Origin: Alphaproteobacteria bacterium
Lineage (GTDB): Bacteria; Pseudomonadota; Alphaproteobacteria; UBA2966
Direction of reading: 5' to 3'
Assembly: GCA_964291395.2 (NCBI GenBank)
Contig: OZ219858.1
Coordinates: forward strand, 992,001 to 1,056,000
Length of the DNA: 64,000 nucleotides
This document shows positions 6,976 through 64,000 of this stretch, piece by piece (within the stretch, counting starts at the first letter, position 1; every line of letters starts with the position of its first letter). The notes below the pieces were generated by a model. The model saw only the letters and a list, made by a program, of their open reading frames with translations, did not search any database and was not told the origin of the DNA. The position numbers and the translations under genes are program-made.

Positions 6976-9263
6976 GGCTTCCTCCGATCAAGAGCCATCA
7001 GCAAGGGTGGGAGCAGCAGAAAATCGGCAAGGAGGGCGAAGACGATCGTGAGCGTGACCAGGAGGCCGAGCGCCCAGCTGACCTCGAACCCCGATGAGGC
7101 GAACACCAGGAATCCGAGGGCCAGGATAGCGGTCGTGGTCCACAACGCGTGACCGACGGTCTGAAAAGCGGTACGCACCGCCTCGGAGGCGGAAAGGCCC
7201 TCGCGGCGGGCCTTCAGGTACTTGCTCAGAAAATGGATCGTATCGTCAACGATGATACCGAAGGCGATCGCGGTCATGACCGAACCGGCGAGACCCACAC
7301 GGCCGACCATATGGCCCCACAGGCCCAAGCTCGCGGCCGCAGGGATGAAGTTGGGCACGAGACTGAGCAGACCGACGCGCACGTTCCTGAAGACGACGAT
7401 CAACAGCAATGAAATGAGGCCCATCGCGATGATCGTGCCGGTGAGCATGCTTTTGATGTTCCGCTGGGACAGATGAGCGAAAACGATACTGACACCCGAC
7501 GCCTCGGACGCCAGGTCGGGCGCGTTGGCCCGGATCCATGCCTGCGCGCGCGCATCCAGCTCGCGCTGGCCCTGAGAGGTGAGGCTGCGGAGCACGACGG
7601 TCATCCGGGTTGCGGATTTGGCGACGTCTATGCGGTTGTTGAGGTCCCGGCCGAAGGGCAGCGAAAGCTCGTAAAGCAGCAAATATTGCGCGGAGAGTTC
7701 GGGATCGTCCGGCAGCCGGTGATAGGCCGGGTCGTCGCCGTGCATGTTCTTGTTCAGACGCTTCATGATGTCCGGAAATGCCTGGACATGGCTGACTTCA
7801 GGCTGCTTTCGGTACCACTCGGCGAAGGAATCGACCTTCTGCAGATATGCGGGATCGGTGACACCCTCTTCGCGCCCCGACCTCAGCGAGTATTCCAGCG
7901 TTTCCATGCCGGTCAGGTTTTCGATGACGAAGTCCGTGTCCTGTCGGAACTGATAACGCTCGCTGAGGTATTGCGTCCAATTGTCGGTCAGCTCGAGGCG
8001 GGGAACGCCGGTGACCAGAGCGACCGCCAGGACGGCGGAGCACCAGAGCAGAATCTTGCGGCGCGCGACGACGAAGGCGCCGAAGCGGTCGAAGAACCCG
8101 GCCTTTCCGGTGCCGGCGGGTCGCGCGCGCAACGGCAGGATCGAAAGCAGCGCCGGCAGGAGTGTCATGGAATAGACGTAGGCGCAGAACACGCCGAACG
8201 CCACGAGATTGCCGAGGACGCGGAAAGGCGGCGAGTCGGAGGCGTTCAGGCTGAGGAAGCCGATGACTGTCGTGGCCGTGGTGAGAAACACCGGCCAGGC
8301 ATTGACGCGAAGCGAGTCGGTGACCGCCGCATTCCGGTCCAGACCCCGGCTCATACCCGACAGGGTCGTCTCGACGATGTGGACCGAGTGTGCGACAGCC
8401 ACCGTCATCACGATTATGGGTACGCCGGAATTGGCCGGATTGAACACCGTACCGAGCCAGCCCGCGAAGCCCACCGTGGTGTTGATGACGAACACCAGCA
8501 CGGCGGCGATCGCCGCTGTTCCGAATACGGAACGTAGAAGGACGGCCGCGACGACCGTGATGATCAGGAACACGATCGGCGCAAGCGATTCGAGATCGTC
8601 CTTCGTGGCGTCGGCGAATGCGCGGTTCAGGGGAACGTCGCCGGTCAAGTAATAGGCGATGTCGGGATGGCTGGTTCTGGCCTCGTCGAGAATGCCGTCG
8701 AGATAATCGGTGATCTCGATCACTGCGGCGTCGGGGTTTTCGGGCAGGGCGAAACTGATCGCCAGCCCGGCCGCTCTTCCGTCGTGCGAAACCAGTCGCC
8801 CGGCAATGTCGACGGCGTTCAGCGCGGTCTCCTCGACCCGGGCCAGGTCGGCGTCCTTCAGCGTGCTCGCGCCTTCGACGAGCGGCTCGACGATCAACTC
8901 GTCGCCGTTCGCCCGACTGTGGGAATAATTGGTGAGCGAATCGACCCGGGTGGAATGAGGTGCGCGCCACGCTGCGTCGGTCAGTTCTTCTATGGCTCCC
9001 AGCGTCTCGCGGCTGAACACCGAGCCCTTTCGGGGTGCGATGGCGATCAACGCCGTATTGGATGCGCCGTAGGTATTCTCAAAGGCATTCAATGCGGAAA
9101 GCTGCGGATTGTCCTGGTCGAACAGACTGCGGTAGTCATTGGTGACGCTGACGAAACCGACGCCCGCCGTCACGGCCAGCATGATCAGCGCGGCGAGCAG
9201 GAGGACCGGCCAGCGATAGCGCAGGATGAAGGCGGTGTAACGGCCCAGGCGCTCAGCGGTCAT
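6972..9263 (-). CDS. MMPL/RND superfamily transporter
   Basis: Two repeated TM blocks, GIIVDDTIHF motif; start taken at MTAERL. Confidence 0.9.
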   Translation of the reverse strand: MTAERLGRYTAFILRYRWPVLLLAALIMLAVTAGVGFVSVTNDYRSLFDQDNPQLSALNAFENTYGASNTALIAIAPRKGSVFSRETLGAIEELTDAAWRAPHSTRVDSLTNYSHSRANGDELIVEPLVEGASTLKDADLARVEETALNAVDIAGRLVSHDGRAAGLAISFALPENPDAAVIEITDYLDGILDEARTSHPDIAYYLTGDVPLNRAFADATKDDLESLAPIVFLIITVVAAVLLRSVFGTAAIAAVLVFVINTTVGFAGWLGTVFNPANSGVPIIVMTVAVAHSVHIVETTLSGMSRGLDRNAAVTDSLRVNAWPVFLTTATTVIGFLSLNASDSPPFRVLGNLVAFGVFCAYVYSMTLLPALLSILPLRARPAGTGKAGFFDRFGAFVVARRKILLWCSAVLAVALVTGVPRLELTDNWTQYLSERYQFRQDTDFVIENLTGMETLEYSLRSGREEGVTDPAYLQKVDSFAEWYRKQPEVSHVQAFPDIMKRLNKNMHGDDPAYHRLPDDPELSAQYLLLYELSLPFGRDLNNRIDVAKSATRMTVVLRSLTSQGQRELDARAQAWIRANAPDLASEASGVSIVFAHLSQRNIKSMLTGTIIAMGLISLLLIVVFRNVRVGLLSLVPNFIPAAASLGLWGHMVGRVGLAGSVMTAIAFGIIVDDTIHFLSKYLKARREGLSASEAVRTAFQTVGHALWTTTAILALGFLVFASSGFEVSWALGLLVTLTIVFALLADFLLLPPLLMALDRRKP

Positions 9264-9422
9264 CGCTTCGGCTCTCGCTGGCGGAGAGGGGTAGCCGGCC
9301 TGCCGGATTGAGCGCAGGGCGGCCTGCACGCGGCGGGCTGTGGACCGCGTGGTGCCAAACGGTCGGTTCCTCGGCTTCCCGTCATCGCAGGGAGGACATC
9401 ACGATCGCAATGCAGGCGGTGC

Positions 9423-10598
9423 TCACCACGGGCTTGATTCCGAATGTTTTGCGTGATCGGGCAGCTTGTCGCTCAAACCCTCGTCGTCGTAGGACGATAT
9501 CTGGAGAAGCTGGGTAAAATTATTCGCCCGCACCAGTTGTTCCTGCTTCAACAACCGTTGAATGCGTTGCTTCATTCGGAAGAAGAACAGCGTCCCGAAG
9601 GTCGATGATTTGGGATACTGGTACTGATCGGAGAGTTCGTTGCCGAGCAGCGCGCGTGAGAGCCGATAGGCAAGCTCGAGAACATTTTGTTTCTCGACCG
9701 GATCGTCTAAACCGGCGACTCCTGGAATGGCGTTGATCAACGCGTTCGCCATGACTACCGAATCGGTGTCCGCCGGCGGCTCACACAGGTAGCCTATCCT
9801 GTATATCCTCTTTGCGTCGGCGCCGTCGGTATAGAGAATGGTTTCCGGAATTCCCATGAGAAAGCCGGTGTAGCGCCAGACGCTGAGAACGCTCTCCTGT
9901 TCTTCGGCGCTGAATCGGCCGCCGAGAAACGAGGTATAGTCCAACAGGCGGCGGGAGAAAATCGAGATGGCAAGGCCCAGGTTCGCCGCGCTTAGCGGAG
10001 TGCCCCAGGCTTCGTGGTCCCATTCGTCCGATTTTGCCAGCAGGTTCCTTACCCGGGCATGGACGAAGCGTACCCGCACCGAAGTCCTCCACCCGTCGTT
10101 CTCCCGGCACAGGCCGTTTGGATAGAATATTTCGATCAGTTGACGGTTGTTCTGTCGAAGCCGTCTTGTGGTCGCCGCCACTCGTCCGGTCATGTTGAAG
10201 GACTTGGCGATAAGCGTCGAGAACCCCTCCACCAGCACGCCCGTAACGAACGCGATGAGCATGAGATCCGCCTGTGCGTGGAAGGTTCTGACTCCCGGCC
10301 GGAAAGACTCGTGGTCGAGCCACGGAGGATCTTCCATGTTTTGGAAGAAGTCGCGCAAACTTTGGGGGGCGTCACGCAAGAGTTCGTGCTGATGCTTCAG
10401 GCCCGCTCCGAAGAAGCGATGCAGGTCATCCGCGGCGAGAGAGGAGACATCCTCCATCACCGGATCCAACACGGGATCACCGATGGTAGTGTGCCGGATG
10501 TAGTTGTCGGCGGCCTCCCGATCGACGGCGCGCGCCTTGGTGTAGCCGTCGGCATATGCCGATGGGACGTTCGCTATCGGCGGCGGAACGTTTGTCAT
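9423..10598 (-). CDS. MpaB/DUF2236 (Lcp-like) oxygenase family protein
   Basis: RVRFVHARVR, WDHEAWGTPL, WRYTGFLMGI motifs. Confidence 0.8.
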   Translation of the reverse strand: MTNVPPPIANVPSAYADGYTKARAVDREAADNYIRHTTIGDPVLDPVMEDVSSLAADDLHRFFGAGLKHQHELLRDAPQSLRDFFQNMEDPPWLDHESFRPGVRTFHAQADLMLIAFVTGVLVEGFSTLIAKSFNMTGRVAATTRRLRQNNRQLIEIFYPNGLCRENDGWRTSVRVRFVHARVRNLLAKSDEWDHEAWGTPLSAANLGLAISIFSRRLLDYTSFLGGRFSAEEQESVLSVWRYTGFLMGIPETILYTDGADAKRIYRIGYLCEPPADTDSVVMANALINAIPGVAGLDDPVEKQNVLELAYRLSRALLGNELSDQYQYPKSSTFGTLFFFRMKQRIQRLLKQEQLVRANNFTQLLQISSYDDEGLSDKLPDHAKHSESSPW

Positions 10599-11237
10599 GT
10601 CGATCTCTCAAACCCGTCGCACGGAGGGCTCAGGCACGGGACCCGACTGTATGTTTCCAACTACGATCAGGAGATACTCAAGTATACCGACAGCCGGAAC
10701 ATAACACTCCACGATCGGCTGATAACAGCCCCACCAGGAAGGCAGCGCGCTGTCTGTCCGCCATGCGTGCTGCCGCAGGAGGAATCTCGATCCCACTTGG
10801 TGCCGCTCTTGACCGATGGCCCAGAAAGATGGACGAACGGACCAGGGATAACGACCGTCGACGTGAATCCGGTTCCGGGCAGGAAGATCTCTATCCATAC
10901 TTGTGCAAGCTGTCGCTTGCGGGGTTGATGTTGGGGCGTCGCGGTCTCGACACGGTTGTCGAACTGTACACGTATTGGATCGATCATTCTACATGGAAGG
11001 AGCCGGCTCCCTGCACAGCCGCGGGGCGGTGACGGAGCGGTGAGCGACTCGACCGAAAATCCGGCAGGGGCACGCACCGGCTCACTGTCGTCGGTGCGGG
11101 GATGCGAAAGATTTTGGAGTTCCACAGAAATACGTTCGTAAGCTGGCGCTGTATGCACGAGTACATGCGTGGCAGGGTTTGGCTGACAGAGCTCGACGAG
11201 ACCTTGGCGGCGACCGTCGAGACTTATGATGATCCGA

Positions 11238-11265
11238 CCCTGACAGCCCTGACAGCCCTGACAGC
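11238..11265. repeat. 9-bp tandem repeat CCCTGACAG x3
   Basis: Seen directly, inside a degenerate ORF. Confidence 0.9.
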
Positions 11266-11304
11266 ATCGACAACGGGTCCACCCGCGGTGGAAGGACAAC
11301 GGCG

Positions 11305-11886
11305 TTGAAGCTCCCAAACGGAGACCGTTCCATCATTGATCGGCGGAAGATCACGGATTACTGCCTCAGCCTCGATCACGACGATGGCAATCGCAAGGTC
11401 CGTTTGTTCCAGGAACTCATCGGTCTGAACCAGAACAGCTCAACGCTGTTGCTTGACGCGCTCCGCACAGTGGCCGCAACCGATGATGCGATCGTTGGCA
11501 AAGTGGACGAGTACGGTCGCCGGTACATCATCGACTTCGAGCTCGAAGGTCCGCGGGGCATGGCCATGACTCGTTCGGCATGGATCGTGAGAGCCGATGA
11601 AGAGGTACCTCGGCTGGTCACCTGCTGTATTCCGAGCTCGCTGACTCGCACATGGATGATTGACGTGGCCGAAACACGACAACTGCTGTTGGATCTGGTA
11701 GCCGTGGTCCGCAGCTCTGGCGATCCGGAAATCCAGGCGGGCGACGTGGGGACCATTGTCGAGCTGCCCCCTTCCGACGCTCTGGAAGTCGAGTTCCTGA
11801 GCCGTGACGGCCGAACCCGGCACATCGGCACGCTCTCCACCGATGACGTGCTCGTTCTCAACCGCGAGCGGACCCGCGTCGCCTGA
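11305..11886 (+). CDS. Fused DUF6883-like and DUF4926-like proteins (putative toxin/immunity pair, probably degenerate)
   Basis: MKLPN..R.II...KI..Y.L...H..G..K and PRLVT N-half; GDVGTIVE...EVEF...DGRT C-half; family names from recall. Confidence 0.65.
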   Translation: MKLPNGDRSIIDRRKITDYCLSLDHDDGNRKVRLFQELIGLNQNSSTLLLDALRTVAATDDAIVGKVDEYGRRYIIDFELEGPRGMAMTRSAWIVRADEEVPRLVTCCIPSSLTRTWMIDVAETRQLLLDLVAVVRSSGDPEIQAGDVGTIVELPPSDALEVEFLSRDGRTRHIGTLSTDDVLVLNRERTRVA

Positions 11887-55445: not shown

Positions 55446-56300
55446 TCAGGCGGCGATGATCGCGGCTCCGGTCACTTGGGTCCGGTGCATCGTGCGGCGT
55501 GAGTCCGCGGGAAACGCGTTTCGACGGTGCATGACACAGCGATTGTCCCAAATGATCAGGTCACCCGTCCGCCACTCATGGGTCCACACGTACTTCCGTT
55601 GGGTGGCATGTGCCCAAAGCGCATCGAGGAGCTTCTCGCTTTCCTCCGCGTCCATGCCAACGATGTATTGCTTGGGGCGGCGCCCCAAATAGAGAACCGG
55701 CCGGTCAGTGTCGGGATGACGGCGCATCAGCGGATGGCGCGCGTGCGGTGACTCTGTTCGCACCCCCGCCACCTCCACCGAACGTTGCGGGGCGCCGGCG
55801 CTGTCATAGGTGCCATCCTGGTGCGCCGATTTGCCTGCGATCGCCGACCGCAAATGCTCGGGCAGCTCCGACGTCGCCGAGTACATATTGCAGAATTCGG
55901 TCTCGCCGCCCTCTGACGACACTTCCAGGGCATGGAGAATGCTGGCCTTGGGTGGCACGGGGTGGTTGGACATGTCCGTATGCCAGCGCAGCTCTCCGTC
56001 GCCCAGGCTACCCATCGGCTCGCCGTCGACGATGACGTTGGAAACGATGATGAGTTCCGGATGTTCCGCCGAGTACTGCTTTCCCGTCGCATTGGGGGGA
56101 CAAAGATCCAAGTCGCCGAAGTAACGGCTGAAACTGATCAGTTCCGGGTCGGAGATGAACTGGTTGCGGAAAAGCAAGACCAGGTGTTCGGACCAGGCGT
56201 CCATGATTGTCCCGGCGTCCGCCGGGTCGAGCGCTTGAGAGAGATCCGCGCCGCGAATCTCGGCTCCCAGTGCCTTGCCGGTGGGAATCACTTCGATCAT
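55446..56300 (-). CDS. TauD/TfdA family 2-oxoglutarate dioxygenase
   Basis: WHTD, GGETEF, WDNRCVMHR. Confidence 0.93.
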   Translation of the reverse strand: MIEVIPTGKALGAEIRGADLSQALDPADAGTIMDAWSEHLVLLFRNQFISDPELISFSRYFGDLDLCPPNATGKQYSAEHPELIIVSNVIVDGEPMGSLGDGELRWHTDMSNHPVPPKASILHALEVSSEGGETEFCNMYSATSELPEHLRSAIAGKSAHQDGTYDSAGAPQRSVEVAGVRTESPHARHPLMRRHPDTDRPVLYLGRRPKQYIVGMDAEESEKLLDALWAHATQRKYVWTHEWRTGDLIIWDNRCVMHRRNAFPADSRRTMHRTQVTGAAIIAA

Positions 56301-56415
56301 GACCTTGTCCTTTGACGACTACGATGGTCGGTGCGCAACGCCGGCTGCCGAGCATACGATTTTTCCAGATCTGACGGCCCGGTTAAAGGGGCCAAAGACG
56401 AAACGAGTTGTGCGC

Positions 56416-57948
56416 TCACTGGCCTACGCTTCGCGCAACGCGGAACCCGAAATTGTAATTGCGGTACTCCAGGATGTACCGGGCTCGCTTGGCGGATCGG
56501 ACATTCTTCGGATGGCTCCCCCAGGCACCGCCTCGCATCACGCGGCGCCCGCAGTTTCCGCTCAACCAGGGCGAACCGTCCCGGGGCGCGCCCCGATAGC
56601 TGTCGTTCCAGCAGTCTTCGACCCATTCCCAGACGTTTCCATGAACGTCGTGCAAACCGAATTCATTTGGTGCAAAGCTGCCGACGGGAAGCGTTCGCTT
56701 GCGGTACACGCCTCTCTCGCCTTCCCCATATGACGACGTCCCGTTGTAGTTCGCTTGGTCCGACGTGATTGTCTGGCCCACGTGGAATGGTGACCGCGTG
56801 CCCGCCCGGGCCGCGTATTCCCATTCCGCTTCGCTCGGCAGCCGATAGATCTGGCCGGTCTTCTCGCTAAGCCAAGCGGCGTACGCCTTCGCCGTGTTCC
56901 AGCTGATGCAGACGACGGGATCGTTCTCGCCCTGCGGATACCCGGGATCGCGCCAGCTCTTCGACGTGTCCAAGCGGCCGCCCGAGCCGACCCGCACGAA
57001 GCAGGAGCCTCCCCCTGCGTGTCCCGTTTCTTCGACGAAGGATGTGAATTCTCCTCGCGTCACCTCGAATCTGCCCATGGCGAACGAGGCCACCATGACT
57101 TCGTGCTTCGGTCCCTCCACGTCGTCCCGAAACGGCTCGTCCGGCGGCGAACCCATGACGAATGCGCCGCCCGGCACCACCACCATCTCCGGGCACACGT
57201 CGCAGTCTCTGAATGTCGTGCCGGGTGGCAGATCCGGCAACAGCAGCAGGAAGGTCCCGAGAGCGGCGAATACCAGGAGCGATATGCCCATCGCCACCAG
57301 CCGCCACCTCGGGAGACGGACAGGTCCCGTCGCCAGGGGGACAAGATCCCCCGTGCCTTGAAGCGCGCCGGTGGCCGGGGCGGTCACGGGTTCGAGCCCC
57401 ACGTGACGCAGGACTTCGTCGGCGTTGCGCACGCCCAGGATCCCTTCAACGCCGGCTATGCCGTGATCGGCGACGTCCTCCAGATTCGCTGCGGGAACGA
57501 CCAGCGTGACGGGAGATTTCTCCGCGACGCGGCCGGAAAAATGCTCGCGCGTCGCGTGAAGCTTCTCTCTCATGAAATCCGCTTTTCCCACCCGCAGATC
57601 AACGTCGACGGTTCCGGTGATCCACAGGGTTGCGCCTGCGTCCTCACCGGGTCCCGCAAGGCGACCCGCCCTATCCAACGCGTGCGCGACCAATACGGGC
57701 AGCTGCCAGGAATTGCCGTCGCCGATTTCGCCCGAGGCGTCCAACCGGAAGCCACCGGGCTCGAACGGGCCCAGGACCCGCTCGATCACACCCGAGGGTT
57801 GGCGAACGAAATCATCGTAATCGGAGCTGATGGGCAGAACCGATGTCGTCCGGCCCAGGCAAACCTGCGAAATGGGCGCCGCCTCGCGCGTGATCCGCTC
57901 GATCTGAACGGGCTCTTTCGTGGTTGCGGCGAAGACGTGAACCTTCAT
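56416..57948 (-). CDS. Lon-like (S16) protease domain + TM helix + formylglycine-generating-enzyme (SUMF1/C-lectin fold) domain
   Basis: FGE motifs RLPSEAEWEYAARAG, GNVWEW, GFRVAR are clear; N-domain has DGNS, ITG.V, REK, VVPAAN; hydrophobic segment at about aa 217-237. Confidence 0.8.
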   Translation of the reverse strand: MKVHVFAATTKEPVQIERITREAAPISQVCLGRTTSVLPISSDYDDFVRQPSGVIERVLGPFEPGGFRLDASGEIGDGNSWQLPVLVAHALDRAGRLAGPGEDAGATLWITGTVDVDLRVGKADFMREKLHATREHFSGRVAEKSPVTLVVPAANLEDVADHGIAGVEGILGVRNADEVLRHVGLEPVTAPATGALQGTGDLVPLATGPVRLPRWRLVAMGISLLVFAALGTFLLLLPDLPPGTTFRDCDVCPEMVVVPGGAFVMGSPPDEPFRDDVEGPKHEVMVASFAMGRFEVTRGEFTSFVEETGHAGGGSCFVRVGSGGRLDTSKSWRDPGYPQGENDPVVCISWNTAKAYAAWLSEKTGQIYRLPSEAEWEYAARAGTRSPFHVGQTITSDQANYNGTSSYGEGERGVYRKRTLPVGSFAPNEFGLHDVHGNVWEWVEDCWNDSYRGAPRDGSPWLSGNCGRRVMRGGAWGSHPKNVRSAKRARYILEYRNYNFGFRVARSVGQ

Positions 57949-58496
57949 CCGTCGATGAATATCTCGCTTCCGGGATCACGAAGCGCCGCCAGCACTTCCG
58001 AATCGTTTTCGACGAGAATTTGGATCAATCCGGCGTGGGGTTCCGGCAGCGCAACCCGTCGGCACGTATTGTCGCCGACGAACACCGCCAGCCATCTCGG
58101 ATGACGGCCCGGATCATCCAAGGAGATGATGATGTACGTCTGCGCCGGCTCGGCGCGTGATTCTTCAAAACGAATGCGGCAGCCGGGGGCCACGCGTTGC
58201 GCGACGCCTCCCGCGGCTGCGGCGGCGAGTTCGGGGATATGATAGCAGGCAATCTTTTCGGTGAGGCGCCGCAATTCGGCGCGAAGTGCGGAACTTTCCC
58301 GAAGTGCGGTCTCGAGGTTCGGGTCTCTTGGGCGCGCCTCGGTAACGTAAACGTAGAGACGCCGCAGCGTGACGTGCTCACCGAACTCCATTCCATCGAT
58401 CGAGACGCCCAGCGCCGCTTCCGTCGCAAGCACGTCGAATGTCCGCTCGGCAACCGCAAGAGTGTCATCGTCGGGTAGCTCAAACCGTTCGCTCAT
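57945..58496 (-). CDS. Hypothetical protein, anti-sigma-factor-like
   Basis: ATGA overlaps with both neighbours; LYVYV...LETALRESSALRAELRRL pattern; central LAAAAA. The gene is well supported, the function is inferred. Confidence 0.6.
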   Translation of the reverse strand: MSERFELPDDDTLAVAERTFDVLATEAALGVSIDGMEFGEHVTLRRLYVYVTEARPRDPNLETALRESSALRAELRRLTEKIACYHIPELAAAAAGGVAQRVAPGCRIRFEESRAEPAQTYIIISLDDPGRHPRWLAVFVGDNTCRRVALPEPHAGLIQILVENDSEVLAALRDPGSEIFIDG

Positions 58497-60004
58497 CGTT
58501 CGACCCCATAGATACGAGCAAACTGTTTGCTGAACACGTCATGATCGTATGCGAACTGATCGTCGAGATCAGTCCCTTCCTCCACCGATTGTTTCAATAC
58601 CCGCAGAAATGCATGGATTTGATCGCTAATCGCCGCCAGTGCTCCGGCACCGACTTCGTACACGACACCCGATCCGCGTTCACCCACGACCGCGTCCTCG
58701 AAGCCCCTGCGCGAGATTCCCGCAAAGGCCCGTTTCGCTACATCCCGCGCCTCCTCGAGCCGCTCGTCTTCGGACGCTCGTTCCGCAGCGTCATCCGCCT
58801 GGAGAGCCACGTGGAGCGCTGCCCGCAATGCGTTGTTCACGCGCTCGTCCAGCACGACGAGCCGGTCATGCCATTCCCGGTACGTCTCGGCGCCGGCGCA
58901 GGCGATGAGCTCGCTCAAGGTGTCGCCAGTATCCCGCCGCCTTGCAGCTTGTGAAAGCCGGGCCTGTACATCCCCGAAGACTTCGGCACGCAACAGAGAC
59001 CAGGGCAGCCGATGCACGCGCGGTCCGTGCTCCATCAGACGATCCAGAGCCGTCAGGTCCACCTTGTTCAGGAACCGAACGTTCTCGAAGGGCGGCTCTT
59101 GCAACGTCGAAAGCGGGGAGGTCCACAAGGCGGCTGCTTCCGCGTCATCCAGAAGTAGAGCAACGTCGACCTCACCCGCATCCCGATCGGAGCCGATTGA
59201 ACGGGCGCGTTCGACGGCCTCGCGGTCCGTCGCGATCTCGAGGGCCGAGAGGAAAGCCATGTAGGCGTCGAACACGCTCCGAAACAGACGGAAGTTTCCG
59301 GTTTCGCCGTTCAGAGATTTCTCCCGCCAGAACGCCAGGACGGTGGCGTCCTCGACGACCAGCGTTTTCGACTCCGACCTCGCGTAATCGAGCAGCTCCT
59401 GAAACTTGCCCTGCATCTGAACGCTTGGAAGGTGTTCCTTCAGGTACGCATACAGGCGCCGTTCGATTCCATTCGCTGCGCTCCGGACGCCGCGGTCCGT
59501 CATGGGTGGTTCCAGCATGGTGTGGAACTCATCGTCGACAGCGGCGTAACCGATGGTGCCGCAGAGAAATTCGAACAAGGCGGCGAGAACCGGCATTCCG
59601 GCAAATCCCACGTTGAAGACACCGTCGTCGTAGCGCACGGCAACGCCGTCTGCCGTCAGTTCGCATCCGGGACGCCGCCAACCCCGATTAGTCACGGCGT
59701 TCTGGATCCAGCCTCGGAATCCGGAACCGGTAGCACGTTCCGGTCCCAGCAACAAATGCTCGTAGGCGCCGCGGCGGGGCGCGCACGAGTCGGCCACGTT
59801 GATCAGGTGGCAAAGCTGCAGGACGGGTACCGCATAGGCGCGGCAGACGACGAGCCGGTTGAGACGACGGCACACCTTGGTGGGATAGTGGGCCGCACCG
59901 TCCGGGGTGGTGGAGTCCGCCACCGCTTGGAGGGCGGCTCGCAGCTCGCCACTCTGTCCCGCCTCCAGGACGAGGCTTGCCGCGCGTTCTATTTCGAGCG
60001 ACAT
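58493..60004 (-). CDS. Hypothetical protein (~503 aa), possibly a divergent sigma-factor-like protein
   Basis: Long ORF with AGGAGG RBS 7 nt before ATG 60004; function speculative. Confidence 0.6.
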   Translation of the reverse strand: MSLEIERAASLVLEAGQSGELRAALQAVADSTTPDGAAHYPTKVCRRLNRLVVCRAYAVPVLQLCHLINVADSCAPRRGAYEHLLLGPERATGSGFRGWIQNAVTNRGWRRPGCELTADGVAVRYDDGVFNVGFAGMPVLAALFEFLCGTIGYAAVDDEFHTMLEPPMTDRGVRSAANGIERRLYAYLKEHLPSVQMQGKFQELLDYARSESKTLVVEDATVLAFWREKSLNGETGNFRLFRSVFDAYMAFLSALEIATDREAVERARSIGSDRDAGEVDVALLLDDAEAAALWTSPLSTLQEPPFENVRFLNKVDLTALDRLMEHGPRVHRLPWSLLRAEVFGDVQARLSQAARRRDTGDTLSELIACAGAETYREWHDRLVVLDERVNNALRAALHVALQADDAAERASEDERLEEARDVAKRAFAGISRRGFEDAVVGERGSGVVYEVGAGALAAISDQIHAFLRVLKQSVEEGTDLDDQFAYDHDVFSKQFARIYGVER

Positions 60005-60245
60005 GTTCACGCCTCCTGCATGGTCAGATCACGTTCAACGCCGGTGGAATTCCTCCTGCCTGCTTTAGTCGGAGGCCGGCCTTCTTGGCAACAGCGGCAT
60101 CGAACTCACGGCCATGGGCCTGGGCGACGCCCCGCTCGGTGACATCCTGGCGCGCGTGGCGCGACTGCCGTGGGTGGGCTAATTTTCGCCATCGGGTGAC
60201 GGATCCGTACCCAATTCAAGCCCGAAAACATCGGAGGGAGCATCT

Positions 60246-60494
60246 ATGTCGTTCTACAAACCGGACCTTGGCGCAAATCCGGACGATCCCTTTGCCCGCG
60301 ATGCCGATGGAAAGCTGGTCAGGCGAGCGTTTTGGCTCGATATGAGCGACCGCTCTCTGGTGCTCGCCATGACCCGGGGAGTTGGCGCCCCTTTGACCGC
60401 GTCGGAAAAACGCGCTCATCTCGAGGACGTCGACCGTTCCCACTTGATCGATGAGGTCTGTACACAGGAAATCCTGCCACCCGAGGGGGAATGA
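60246..60494 (+). CDS. Small hypothetical protein (82 aa)
   Basis: GGAGGGAG RBS, natural-looking sequence; divergent from the 3-gene operon. Confidence 0.65.
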   Translation: MSFYKPDLGANPDDPFARDADGKLVRRAFWLDMSDRSLVLAMTRGVGAPLTASEKRAHLEDVDRSHLIDEVCTQEILPPEGE

Positions 60495-60638
60495 CCCCCG
60501 ATCGTGCACGGCAGAGCTGGGCCTGCGGTCGTTGCCGACTGCCGAGGGTTTGTGGACAATGGTGTCGGTGCGGGCTAGAAGGGTGTCGCTGTTTCGGGGT
60601 GTCCGGGATGGTTGAGAGGATTTTGGAGGGGTGGAGCG

Positions 60639-60977
60639 ATGGATGTTGCGACGGAACGGCAGGACGACGTCTTGTCGGTCCTGGTGAGCGGTCGCATTGA
60701 CGGTTCCAATGCTGCGGCGTTCGAGGAGTCGGTTAGAGCGGCGATTTCGGACAGCGACCGAGCGGTGATCATGGACCTTGAGAAGCTTTCTTATATCAGC
60801 AGCGCGGGTCTTCGTGTTTTGCTGATGATTGCCAAGAATCTTTCGGGTCGGGACGCCAAGCTGGCGCTTTGCGCCATGTCGGATCAGATTCGGGAGGTTA
60901 TCGAGATAAGCGGTTTCGACAAGATCATCCCGGTTCACCCGTCCAAGGCCGAGGCGCTTGCGTCCCTGGACGGCTGA
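60639..60977 (+). CDS. STAS-domain anti-sigma factor antagonist (RsbV/SpoIIAA-like)
   Basis: GRID, DLEKLSYISSAGLRVLL, EISGF. Confidence 0.93.
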   Translation: MDVATERQDDVLSVLVSGRIDGSNAAAFEESVRAAISDSDRAVIMDLEKLSYISSAGLRVLLMIAKNLSGRDAKLALCAMSDQIREVIEISGFDKIIPVHPSKAEALASLDG

Positions 60978-61045: not shown

Positions 61046-61468
61046 ATGGTCGCTGAGGTGTCCTTGCGCATGGGGGCGGCCCGGGAGGAGCTTCCGCGCG
61101 TACACGCGGCGCTTGAGGCGTTTGCGCGGGATGAGGGCTGGCCTTCTCGGCTTGAGTTTCAGATCAAGCTGGTCATCGAGGAGGTGGTCATGAACATCCT
61201 GAGTCATGGGTACGAGGATGGCGGCGATCACGACATCCTGATCGAGCTTGCCTCGGATGCGGAGAAGATCGGCATCGAGATTGTCGACGACGGTCGCCCG
61301 TACGATCCTCTGACGGAGGCGCCGGCACCGGATACCGAGGCGTCTCTCGCGGACCGTCCCGTGGGCGGGCTAGGCGTGTATCTCGTATGCGCGTTGATGG
61401 ACGAGGCCAGCTATCGGCGGGAGGACAACCTCAACCGCCTCGCCCTTACCAAACAAAAACCCGCGTAA
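61046..61468 (+). CDS. RsbW/SpoIIAB-like anti-sigma kinase (HATPase)
   Basis: EEVVMNILSHG, DDGRPYDP, GGLGVYL. Confidence 0.92.
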   Translation: MVAEVSLRMGAAREELPRVHAALEAFARDEGWPSRLEFQIKLVIEEVVMNILSHGYEDGGDHDILIELASDAEKIGIEIVDDGRPYDPLTEAPAPDTEASLADRPVGGLGVYLVCALMDEASYRREDNLNRLALTKQKPA

Positions 61469-61630
61469 CCAGACGTTCAGGCCGGTTGCATCCGACAACA
61501 AACAGAAACGCAGACGGCGCATGCCGCAGCGAAGGTATGCTTAAATCCTCCGGTTAATGAATGTTTAGATGGAAACGGAGAGCGAACCGGCGTATACGCA
61601 TATCCCTCTTGCCGCATGAGGAGCAGTGTC

Positions 61631-63016
61631 ATGCCCGGGAAATGGACGCCGGATAGCTGGCGCGGCCTGCCGATTCGGCAGCAGCCGGATTATCCGGATG
61701 CTGCCGCGCTGGAGGAGGCCCTGGATCGGATACGACGGCAGCCGCCGCTCGTCTTCGCGGGCGAGGCGCGCCGGTTGCGTTCGGCGCTGGCGGGTGTGGC
61801 GGAGGGACGGGCCTTTCTGCTGCAGGGCGGCGACTGCGCCGAGAGCTTCGCCGAATTCAGCGCGGACAACATCCGCGACACGTTCCGGGTTTTGATGCAG
61901 ATGGCGGTCGTCATGACGTTCGCGGCGGCCTGCCCCATCATCAAGGTCGGGCGCTTGGCGGGTCAGTTCGCCAAGCCGCGCAGCGCGCCGACGGAGGTCC
62001 AGGACGACGTGGAGCTTCCGAGCTATCGCGGCGATATCGTGAACGGCATGGAGTTTACGGCCGAGGCTCGGGCGGCCAACCCTTCCAGGCTTCTTCAGGG
62101 CTACCACCAATCTTCCGCGACCTTGAATCTGTTGCGGGCGGTCGCGCACGGCGGCTATGCCGACCTTCGCCGCGTTCACGGCTGGAATCTGGATTTCGTT
62201 TCCCGCACCGCTCAGGGCGAGAGATACGCCGGCCTCGCCGACCGTATCACTGAGGCCCTGAGCTTCATGGAGGCATGTGGCATCACCGGTGAGTCCGTGC
62301 CGGCCGTAAGAGAGGTGGACTTCTATACCTCGCATGAGGCCTTGCTGCTCGGTTTCGAGGAGGCCATGACCCGCGTCGATTCGACGACGGGCGACTGGTA
62401 CGACACCTCGGCTCACATGCTGTGGATCGGCGACCGTACCCGTCAGGAAGATGGTGCCCACGTCGAGTTCATGCGCGGGGTCTCCAATCCCATCGGCATA
62501 AAGGCGGGTCCCACGATCGCCCCCGACGAACTGTTGCGGTTGATCGATATCCTCGACCCGGCCGTAGAGCCTGGCCGCCTCACGGTCATCGTGCGCATGG
62601 GCGCCGACAAGGTTGGTGAGCGTCTGCCACCGCTCGTTCGCGCGGTTCGGCGGGAGGGCCGCAAGGTCGTGTGGTCTTGCGATCCGATGCACGGCAATAC
62701 GGTGAAGTCGGCGAACGGTTACAAGACCAGGATGTTCGATCGGATTCTGTCGGAGGTCCGGCAATTCTTCGACGTCCACATTGCGGAGGGAACTTACGCC
62801 GGCGGTGTGCATTTCGAGATGACGGGCCAGGACGTTACGGAATGCCTCGGCGGCGCGCAGGACATCACCGAGCGCTCGCTCGCGGATCGTTACCACACCC
62901 ATTGCGACCCGCGCCTCAACGCATCTCAGGCACTGGAGCTGGCGTTTCTGATCGCCGACTCCCTGAAGGAACAGCGCGCCAACGGTCAGCCCCCGATCGC
63001 CGCCGAGGCGTCCTGA
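61631..63016 (+). CDS. Class II DAHP synthase
   Basis: [39 protein letters not shown]. Confidence 0.97.
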
Positions 63017-63228
63017 GTGTTGTTCCCGGCGCGAAACGACCGGCCGCGCACGGTGACTTATTAGGGCATGCCAGGCGCTTTCGGTTACGAGGTCTGCGGA
63101 CGGGCCGAACCCGATCCCTATGCAGTTCCCCGCACGGGTTTCGAAGAGGCCTTGGAGGCCTGCCGCGCCGGCCGCGACCCGCAGTGGGGATGATGGCGCC
63201 CGGAGTTGGCCGGCGTCAGCTCGAGGGA

Positions 63229-63696
63229 TCAGAACACCCCTGCTTCGAGGCCCGCAGCCACTGCCATTCCAAGCTCTTCGCATTGATCGACAAAGGTGTC
63301 CTGCCACTCTCCACGGCAGATCAACGGATCCTGGACGGCGCGCCATCTCAATCCCGTGACGATCGTTTCGACGCCCCGGCGCGTTCCAGTACCGTCCTGA
63401 CCCGCACGGATATAGAGGGCGTAGGGCAGCCCCTGAGTGTGTTCGAGGCAGGGATAGTAGCTTCGGTCGAAAAAATCCTTCAGCGCGCCGCTCATGTATC
63501 CAAGGTTCTCCGTCGTGCCGAGGATCACGGCCTGGGCCGCGAGGACATCGTCCGCCCCCGCTTGGAGAGGCGGGATCATCCGGACCGTCACGTTCCCGAT
63601 GTCGGGGTTCGTGGCGCCGCGTACCACCGCCTCTCTCAGCCGTTCCGTGTTGGGCGAGGGCGCATGGGCGACGATGAGCAAGCGGCGGAGGGTCAT
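63229..63696 (-). CDS. Flavodoxin family protein
   Basis: HAPSPNT, GTTENLGYMSGALKDFFDR, DGTGT. Confidence 0.88.
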   Translation of the reverse strand: MTLRRLLIVAHAPSPNTERLREAVVRGATNPDIGNVTVRMIPPLQAGADDVLAAQAVILGTTENLGYMSGALKDFFDRSYYPCLEHTQGLPYALYIRAGQDGTGTRRGVETIVTGLRWRAVQDPLICRGEWQDTFVDQCEELGMAVAAGLEAGVF

Positions 63697-63896
63697 GGAA
63701 GCGTGTCATCCTCTGGAACGATGCGGCCTCTACTCCGCCCGAATGAAATACCCACTCCGGACCCGTTTGGCGCCGTTGCCGGCCGCGAATGCTCCGGTCG
63801 GCACGAGCATTCCGACAAGCACTACGACAAGCCACGGCCCGACCGGTACACGAACCGTTTTCCCTTGTCTTCCGGTCCCCATTGATGCCGGCGCGG

Positions 63897-64000
63897 TCAC
63901 GCCATGCCCACGGGGGTCGGCTTGACCGCGATTTCATCATCCGGGCGAGAGGCGATCATGTCCTCCAATTCCTTGCGGACGGACCGGGCGCCGCCGTCGT
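63897..64000 (-). CDS. 3' end of an unidentified CDS entering from beyond the window
   Basis: Open frame ...RKELEDMIASRPDDEIAVKPTPVGMA-stop. Confidence 0.4.
   Translation of the reverse strand, partial: DGGARSVRKELEDMIASRPDDEIAVKPTPVGMA

Follow-up and report, generated by a model that had tools for sequence, protein, structure and literature searches.

The A-B-C locus

We examined a 64,000-nucleotide stretch of DNA from an alphaproteobacterium of the UBA2966 lineage (assembly GCA_964291395.2, contig OZ219858.1, positions 992,001 to 1,056,000), hereafter called the window, to which all positions below refer. Our subject was gene C and its two upstream partners, genes A and B. An initial annotation made from the letters of this DNA had described C as a Lon-type Ser-Lys protease domain fused to a membrane anchor and a formylglycine-generating enzyme (FGE) domain, with no AAA+ module. 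The open reading frame (ORF) that it gave for C was found exactly as described. The three genes were all located on the minus strand in the order A, B, C, with C being the last.

58493..60004, minus strand: gene A, first gene of the operon, 503 amino acids (aa) from ATG 60004
57945..58496, minus strand: gene B, predicted docking partner and proposed substrate, 183 aa
56416..57948, minus strand: gene C, 510 aa, ATG start; predicted Lon-like domain, one transmembrane helix and a PvdO-like domain

The A/B and B/C junctions were both ATGA stop-start overlaps, so that the start ATG of gene C overlapped the stop of gene B. As judged from this arrangement, the A-B-C operon is translationally coupled. 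A scan for promoters and terminators stayed at the chance level. The ORF listing started gene A from GTG 60010; however, the ATG at 60004 was more likely since the homologues were also 503 aa long and an AGGAGG sequence was located 7 nt upstream.

A Lon-like N-terminal domain in protein C

The following features were located within gene C:

57379..57948, minus strand: predicted Lon-fold Ser-Lys protease domain, aa 1-190 (AlphaFold2 model, structure matches and profile)
57709..57711, minus strand: codon of S80, the predicted nucleophile (G-x-S-W-Q-L; codon checked)
57562..57564, minus strand: codon of K129, the predicted general base (codon checked)
57238..57306, minus strand: transmembrane helix, aa 215-237 (Kyte-Doolittle maximum 2.44, the strongest hydrophobic segment of C)
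56431..57195, minus strand: PvdO-like FGE-fold domain, aa 252-506 (PF03781, E 1.9e-64; predicted periplasmic)

All of the motifs quoted in the initial annotation were in place, namely DGNSWQL (77-83, with S80), WITGTVD (109-115), REKLH (127-131, with K129), LVVPAANLED (149-158), and ILGVRNADEVL (170-180). The distance of 49 residues from S80 to K129 was also as it had reported. Curated libraries recognized only the other end of the protein. The Pfam scan of C at E<=1 returned FGE-sulfatase as the only family, with no AAA+ and no SAVED; the NCBIfam scan returned FGE-fold families only; and the PADLOC-DB 2.0 scan of A, B, and C at E<=1 gave 0 families for all three proteins. Thus, residues 1-220 of C matched no curated model, and a phmmer search with this fragment against the PDB had no match at E<=10. 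The claim that an AAA+ module is absent agreed with these scans and with the position of the Lon-like domain, which began at residue 1.

The single-sequence AlphaFold2 model of aa 1-220 was unusable (pLDDT 30.7). When it was supplied with an alignment of 149 N-domain sequences, which was also the basis for the residue counts given below, the model reached pLDDT 91.1 and pTM 0.83, and aa 1-185 were well ordered. A structure prediction was among the checks suggested in the initial annotation, and the modelled aa 1-190 took the Lon proteolytic fold with Z scores of 13-15. The best VIA-align match among 48,161 representative chains was 1xhk_B, the proteolytic domain of the Methanocaldococcus (M.) jannaschii Lon (Z 15.0, root-mean-square deviation (rmsd) 2.7 Å, 157 residues). 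Ranks 1-16 were all Lon-fold chains from Lon A/B/C, RadA, ComM, and BrxL (Z 12.3-15.0), followed by CalpL at rank 17 (Z 9.6) and by the Ser-Lys birnavirus VP4 proteases at ranks 18-20 (Z 7.1-8.4). The chains after VP4 had unrelated Rossmann-like folds with Z of ~6 or less. Foldseek, from which VIA-align is independent, also placed mostly Lon proteolytic domains at the top of its PDB matches (1z0e with E 6.7e-7, 1xhk, LONP1, and E. coli Lon), with Lon-fold chains of RadA and BrxL among them.

Profile comparisons pointed in the same direction. The profile of the 149 sequences had 26 PDB matches at E<=10, 24 of which were Lon-protease chains (E 2.5e-4 to 0.4); the alignment spanned positions 107-191 and put K129 on the Lys of the Lon G-G-x-x-x-K motif. 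The hhalign comparison with the C-domains of LonA, aligned from 14 Lon genes of related genomes, had a probability of 90.6% (E 1.3e-6) and aligned K129 with the Lys of G-G-L-K-E-K. In extended hhalign alignments (global, or mact 0.01), G-D-G-N-S80 fell on K-D-G-P-S with low per-column confidence. As far as models and profiles can tell, the likeness of the N-domain to Lon is more than chance. The predicted structure supported the Lon proteolytic-domain fold for aa 1-190, and the alignments supported the presence of Ser and Lys at the catalytic positions of Lon, K129 confidently and S80 with low confidence.

The initial annotation had made its claim depend on the conservation of S80 and K129 among homologues. 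S80 was found in 149 of the 149 sequences and K129 in 148, the sole exception being a 119-aa fragment that ended before this position. The residues W81, G78, G112, R68, and Y44 were likewise present in 149/149, and H89 in 148/149, while the column of T111 contained Thr in 135 sequences and Ser in 14. The spacing between Ser and Lys was 49 residues in 109 sequences, 51 in 29, and 50 in 8, with single sequences at 47 and at 55. Taken with the predicted fold, the conserved S80 and K129 supported the interpretation as a Lon-type Ser-Lys protease domain.

Family of the N-terminal domain and its fusions

A word-indexed search limited to aa 1-220 found 43 proteins that share the N-domain. Eleven of them had the same FGE fusion and 32 had other C-terminal parts, which contained DUF4384 in one case and no Pfam family in the remainder. 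When 1.84 billion representatives, clustered at 50% identity, were searched exhaustively with HMMER, the family grew to 854 proteins at E<=1e-3, of which 562 also reached E<=1e-10 and 90 reached E<=1e-30. The 854 clusters were mostly alphaproteobacterial, and among the 150 matches listed, the match nearly always began at residue 1-8 of the protein. The modules preceded by the N-domain were FGE, DUF4384, PKD, DUF4189, RHS+PDZ, TPR, and NB-ARC+WD40. Such a variety of modules behind one domain would be in keeping with an output module to which different sensors can be coupled.

Among these proteins were several from soil alphaproteobacteria, 1000-1330 aa long, with the Lon-like head at the N-terminus (loci L069:5998-9972, L072:5998-9978, L079:5998-8997, and L073:5998-9324). 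The modules behind the head were NB-ARC+WD40, TPR, or RHS+PDZ, that is, NLR-like architectures. One apparent relative, P0110 (4041 aa, E 2.5e-32 to the N-domain), was rejected as an artefact: a marginal 95-residue match was repeated 11 times along a eukaryote-like VWA/TSP1-repeat protein. This match was located at the TSP1/VWA junction and included D-A-S-G-x-x-G-D-G-N, and it illustrates how phmmer scores can be inflated through repeats.

The PvdO-like domain and the predicted topology

The initial annotation was correct in that aa 252-506 had the FGE-sulfatase fold, but the domain was PvdO-like rather than a formylglycine-generating enzyme. A phmmer search of aa 237-510 against the PDB matched PvdO (5hha) with E 8.1e-64 (fragment residues 5-271), and the true FGEs were far behind (E 3e-25 or weaker). 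The NCBIfam model of PvdO (NF051459) was also the best NCBIfam match with 257.6 bits, below its equivalog cut-off of 500 bits. In the printed alignment, Ser478 of C was located at the active-site Cys of the T. curvata FGE, and the second Cys of the human FGE fell into a 3-residue gap of C; we take the FGE cysteines compared here to be the catalytic residues. PvdO likewise had no Cys at these positions. Since the cysteine pair was missing and PvdO was by far the closest relative, we considered the domain as PvdO-like and not as an FGE. It is best read, from its sequence relationships, as a ligand-binding or sensor module. For FGE-fold domains ('FGS'), a role as lectin-like sensors within bacterial conflict systems has been suggested (PMC7159879, PMC8195603).

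Judged from frame lengths and from the 11 FGE-fused clusters, the fusion with the FGE fold was carried only by the genus of the window. This suggested that the periplasmic module was swapped onto a conserved core of A, B, and the protease. The initial annotation had also guessed that automatic pipelines would name C after its C-terminal part. Indeed, one relative was named only 'formylglycine-generating enzyme required for sulfatase activity', and PF03781 was the sole precomputed Pfam family for the fused forms.

The proposed membrane anchor was present as the hydrophobic helix at aa 215-237. The hydropathy scan detected no hydrophobic stretch at the N-terminus of C, in agreement with the reported lack of a signal peptide. 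The helix was flanked by R211, R214, and R216 on its N-terminal side and by D240 on its C-terminal side. Thus, C is probably a single-pass membrane protein with the protease inside and the PvdO-like domain outside. This topology, a cytoplasmic protease and a periplasmic FGE-fold domain, had been anticipated in the initial annotation. It fits the charges around the helix as well as the relatives in which the same N-domain is joined to modules that are typically cytosolic (NB-ARC/WD40 or TPR).

Conservation of the operon

When 185,579 species genomes were scanned by pattern, 80 loci were obtained, mostly from Alphaproteobacteria (e.g., Rhodospirillales and Terasakiella) with some from Gammaproteobacteria. 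Hidden Markov models of A, B, and the N-domain were run on every ORF in these loci, and the N-domain was present in 78 of the 80. Gene B was directly upstream of C on the same strand in 64 of the 74 loci with at least 700 bp of upstream sequence, and both A and B were upstream of C on the same strand in 51 of the 65 loci with at least 2300 bp. The operon was also carried by Terasakiella, namely T. pusilla DSM 6293 (L032) and T. brassicae (L040).

Within the order of the window's organism, A and C co-occurred in the same 12 of 23 genomes. Beyond the genome of the window itself, both were found in 11 of 12 genomes of the family and in 0 of 10 genomes of the sister family, the members of which had small genomes (1.3-2.5 Mb). 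There was one match to the C domain per genome, with identities of 48-81% that tracked kinship.

Protein B as a predicted docking partner

No Pfam, NCBIfam, or PADLOC family matched B. A scan of every member of the B alignment gave scattered matches, each in one or two members, and the B profile against the PDB at E<=10 gave a single chance-level match to Trm112 (E 0.18) and no CalpT chain. According to the alignment, a linker connected the helix-rich N-terminal half of B to its conserved, beta-rich C-terminal half.

In the complex prediction for C aa 1-200 with B, all three runs gave an ipSAE score of 0.87, compared to 0.21 for the best of 3 controls. Of 80 solved complexes, 58 attained the calibration mark for this score, as did 2 of 110 mismatched pairs; this is a rough guide since custom alignments were supplied. 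The runs agreed in at least 100% of contacts, with a partner pLDDT of at least 75. The interface was formed by residues 18, 20-26, 28, 30, 33, 35, 37, 42, 45, 68, and 70 of C and by residues 111-116, 119, 121, 123, 151-152, 154, 157, and 159-163 of B. It included invariant or near-invariant residues on both sides (E22, C30, R68, and D70 in C; S113, A115, Q119, Y121, P151, and Q159 in B). B is therefore predicted by the model to dock on the protease domain.

The linker of B contained a conserved motif with the consensus P-x-h-h-A-A-(S/A)-(S/T)-G:

58209..58235, minus strand: motif P-E-L-A-A-A-A-A-G, aa 88-96 of B, conserved linker and proposed cleavage site

In 65 of the 67 homologues, both central columns of the motif were Ala, and A92 and A93 were invariant in the B alignment. 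The residue after Ala-Ala was Ser in 47 cases, Ala in 15, and Asp in 4. Insertions were located directly after the motif, as expected of a flexible linker. By analogy with the CalpT protein discussed below, B may be a substrate that is cut at this Ala-Ala linker.

Protein A

The position of gene A at the head of the operon and its co-distribution with C were the grounds on which we took A to be the putative output of the pathway. The protein had no strong hydrophobic segment (maximum 1.74). A scan of all 35 members of the A alignment gave no recurrent family, only scattered matches in one or two members, and Pfam detected no sigma-factor domain in A or in the alignment members. The A profile had no PDB match at E<=10, and the ESM Atlas contained nothing usable for A or for its homologue P0188. 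None of the homologues found for A had a Pfam domain or a name more specific than 'hypothetical'.

Comparison with known systems

The N-domain of C shared its fold with the proteolytic domain of Lon (S16, PF05362; Z 13.7-15.0 and rmsd 2.7-3.1 Å over 157-165 residues of 1xhk, 1rr9, and 1z0e). Ser and Lys were at aligned positions, and the T-G motif preceded the Lys helix in the same way. Unlike Lon, C had no AAA+ unfoldase, and its protease domain was N-terminal rather than C-terminal, predicted to be membrane-tethered and coupled to an extracytoplasmic domain. The sequence identity was ~14-18%, and Lon_C did not recognize the domain. The Ser-Lys spacing is 43 in E. coli Lon, whereas it was 49 in C and 47-55 in its family.

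The same fold was found in RadA/Sms (5lkq, Z 14.6), ComM (8rxd, Z 12.9), and BrxL (8eil, Z 12.5), where the Lon-like domains accompany ATPase or helicase modules. RadA is not known to carry the Ser-Lys dyad, which the C family keeps. Membrane-anchored Lon-like proteases without AAA+ are also known from the YlbL/SdrC type, composed of a transmembrane anchor, PDZ, and Lon_C. However, the Lon domain of YlbL is C-terminal, extracytoplasmic, accompanied by PDZ, and recognized by Pfam Lon_C, while the protease domain of C was N-terminal and predicted to be cytoplasmic. At the other end of C, the closest sequence relative was PvdO (5hha), the periplasmic FGE-fold protein of pyoverdine maturation, and both had no FGE cysteine pair. 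In C, this domain shared a polypeptide with a membrane anchor and a protease, and it scored below the NCBIfam cut-off.

CalpL is the only AAA-less Lon-fold signalling protease that has been well studied. The CalpL-CalpT-CalpS system of type III CRISPR (SAVED-Lon protease, anti-sigma factor, and sigma factor) had several features in common with A-B-C: both combine a sensor with a Lon-fold Ser-Lys protease free of AAA+, comprise three genes, and include a small partner with an Ala-rich site. A preprint (bioRxiv 10.1101/2024.05.08.593097) reports that CCaCalpL cuts CalpT in LAAA between A204 and A205, leaving a ClpXP degron, and that SsCalpT has its docking surface opposite to the active site, which leads to cutting in trans within a filament. 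The same preprint gives a Ser-Lys spacing of 41 for CalpL, compared to 49 in C. The sensor of CalpL is the cytoplasmic SAVED domain that binds cA4, while that of C was predicted to be a periplasmic PvdO-like domain across the membrane. Moreover, neither CalpT nor CalpS was among the PDB chains matched by the profiles of B and A (E<=10), and A differed from CalpS in having no sigma-factor domain. Thus, the parallel between B/C and CalpT/CalpL is close, but it is an analogy.

A proposed receptor-protease relay and its alternatives

We propose that A-B-C as a whole may work as a receptor-protease relay. The proposal builds on the computed fold, conserved dyad, domain order, operon, co-distribution, and predicted B-C interface, to which it adds a putative topology, catalytic activity, substrate, cut site, and role of A. 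Namely, an AAA-less Lon-fold protease domain with the Ser80-Lys129 dyad (aa 1-190) would reside in the cytoplasm, the helix at aa 215-237 would cross the membrane, and the non-catalytic PvdO-like domain (aa 245-510) would face the periplasm as a sensor. The beta-rich C-terminal half of B would dock on the N-terminal beta-sheet of the protease domain. A periplasmic signal would activate the protease, perhaps by bringing receptor molecules together, and the activated protease would cut B in the P-x-h-h-A-A-(S/A)-(S/T)-G linker. The cleavage of B would then free A or change its state, with A acting as the output protein. We consider this relay to be the best explanation of the locus, with a probability somewhat above even.

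Several observations weigh against it. The Pfam Lon_C profile, which the initial annotation had recommended as a check, had no match to the N-domain at E<=1, and a search of the organism's own genome with PF05362 found three other places including LonA, but not gene C. The confident hhalign and HMMER alignments covered only aa 107-191, leaving the region of S80 at low confidence, and the proximity of S80 and K129 is an implication of the superposition on Lon (rmsd 2.7-3.2 Å). Proteolytic activity of C is a prediction from the fold and the dyad. The complex predictor, in turn, may favour pairs of Lon domains with partners from its memory of solved complexes such as CalpL-CalpT. The motif at aa 88-96 of B was outside the confident contacts of the predicted complex; cleavage in cis was therefore not modelled, and the link between enzyme and substrate is drawn by analogy. 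B was also not a universal partner of the N-domain since 10 of the 74 loci did not have it (L045, L047, L061, L066, L067, L069, L072-L074, and L079). Six of these ten carried long forms of the protein with DUF4189 (L067), NB-ARC+WD40 (L069, L072), RHS+PDZ (L073, L074), or TPR (L079). Finally, the proposed output protein A matched no family in Pfam, NCBIfam, or PADLOC.

The same biochemistry could serve a different role, namely conflict or defence. In that case, the Lon-like domain would be a death or immunity effector protease, the FGE-fold domain a lectin-like sensor of invaders, and A and B accessory or immunity proteins. The NLR-like proteins headed by the N-domain (NB-ARC+WD40, TPR, and RHS/PDZ) and the use of DUF4384 as an alternative C-terminal module would suit such a role, and FGS domains have been described as common sensor or effector modules of conflict systems (PMC7159879, PMC8195603). 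However, A, B, and C had no PADLOC match, their flanking genes were metabolic (TauD, PEBP, and amidohydrolase), and the sensor was predicted to be periplasmic rather than intracellular. Moreover, the genes were single-copy, occurred in 11 of the family's 12 other genomes, and showed identities of 48-81% that followed kinship, so that their inheritance looked vertical, unlike that of patchy defence islands. We therefore consider a defence role unlikely. It is also improbable, to a similar degree, that C is a protein of membrane-protein quality control or self-cleavage, like the AAA-less YlbL-type or viral VP4 proteases, with B as an adaptor or inhibitor. The fold and the dyad are common to Lon and VP4, and the predicted interface with B (C 18-45, 68, 70) was away from S80/K129, which suits an adaptor or a regulator. 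On the other hand, a dedicated and co-distributed three-gene operon with interchangeable sensors fits regulation better than housekeeping, and a near-invariant motif of small residues within a linker of variable length is hard to explain for a mere adaptor.

The Lon-like domain might not cleave at all and might act as a scaffold for oligomerization or binding, like the domains of RadA, ComM, and BrxL. The structural scores of these domains (Z 12.3-14.6) were nearly as high as those of true Lon, and the failure of Lon_C to recognize the N-domain would be consistent with a scaffold. However, the Ser, Lys, G-x-S, and T-G features were kept in 149, 148, 149, and 149 of the 149 sequences, a pattern that marks active S16 proteases and would be unexpected in scaffolds. 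We regard a scaffold as quite improbable, the last of the explanations to be chosen. Compared to these alternatives, the receptor-protease relay remained the explanation that we prefer.

A wider reading of the relay can be put forward only tentatively, and on balance we doubt it. It supposes a new type of transmembrane signalling in which an extracytoplasmic domain (PvdO-like, DUF4384, or others) switches a cytoplasmic Lon-fold protease, B is cut at its Ala-Ala-Ser linker, and the ~500-aa output protein A is released. The same protease head would be the effector of NLR-like NB-ARC/WD40 and TPR proteins. If so, it could be a general 'receptor-protease' module parallel to CalpL and independent of CRISPR and cyclic nucleotides.

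Neighbouring genes

The neighbours of A-B-C in the window were metabolic and included TauD, PEBP, and amidohydrolase genes. The TauD gene was located downstream (55446-56300) and was collinear only in the close relatives L002-L006; we therefore excluded it from the system. Approximately 1 kb upstream of A, a 140-aa HATPase_c_2 protein of the RsbW-like anti-sigma-factor kinase type (E 2.6e-25) was encoded on the opposite strand (61046-61468, plus strand). A 791-aa ORF (61565-63940, minus strand) and a 240-aa ORF (60216-60938, minus strand) had no Pfam family. Both overlapped long plus-strand ORFs; they may be spurious in DNA of 62-65% GC, or they may be further genes.

In ~30 loci from several alphaproteobacterial genera, A-B-C was followed by five conserved ORFs (D-H) and preceded by one (U). 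In L012, they were located at 7355-11511 and 1888-2412, respectively, and other examples were L016, L021, L029, and L039. The gap from C to D ranged from 80 to 2800 bp across loci. Pfam gave nothing convincing for D-H and U: ORF E alone had a sub-threshold match to MRP-L28 (E 3.5e-4, 21.3 bits against a cut-off of 28.4). These ORFs may form a larger cluster with A-B-C. We did not count them in the system here because a tblastn search with the L012 copies (E<=1e-3) found none of them in the genome of the window.

Separate genes with an FGE domain were located within ~6 kb of A-B-C in L007, L008, L010, L011, L019, L025, and L075. Some of these loci were gammaproteobacterial, and their protease gene had a different C-terminal part. 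By eye, the candidate N-terminal parts of the separate FGE genes contained peptidoglycan-binding-like (L007, L009) or caspase-like (L011, L019) motifs. The proximity of these genes to A-B-C may be a recurrent association or a coincidence, and the evidence is weak.

Habitat, expression, and significance

Among the sequencing runs listed for window positions 56300-60100, 20 of 24 contained at least a part of this region. They came from 14 studies, and 13 runs contained at least half of the sampled words. Most of the matching runs were labelled as sponge metagenomes. Thus, the organism appears to be sponge-associated, and the cue sensed by C may relate to the host association. One sponge metatranscriptome contained short contigs with 0-1 differences that covered parts of C, parts of A, and the B/C junction (57794-57993) in a patchy manner; stretches that lack such contigs carry no information either way. 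This is a weak indication that A-B-C is expressed, as carry-over of DNA is possible and contigs cannot show a transcript.

Lon-fold Ser-Lys proteases are already known, as are sensor-fused AAA-less versions such as CalpL. What appeared to be new was the sequence family of the N-domain, unseen by curated libraries, its membrane-receptor layout, in which extracytoplasmic or NLR-type sensors are interchangeable, and the dedicated partners A and B. Our literature search returned no paper that pairs a Lon-like protease with FGE-sulfatase, and a search on transmembrane, periplasmic, or anti-sigma Ser-Lys Lon domains returned nothing relevant. The word 'Lon' was absent from the main text of PMC7159879, PMC8195603, and PMC13581612, although a domain of this kind may have an entry in their supplementary domain tables.

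To date, the CRISPR-linked CalpL is the main case in which regulated proteolysis by AAA-less Lon-like proteases has been understood in detail. If our proposal is true, the C family would bring the CalpL principle to extracellular sensing and to NLR-like proteins as well. A testable function would then become available for three protein families that current pipelines miss, with A and B receiving no name and C being labelled as a sulfatase-modifying enzyme. Since the operon is carried by cultured Terasakiella, the corresponding experiments would be feasible.

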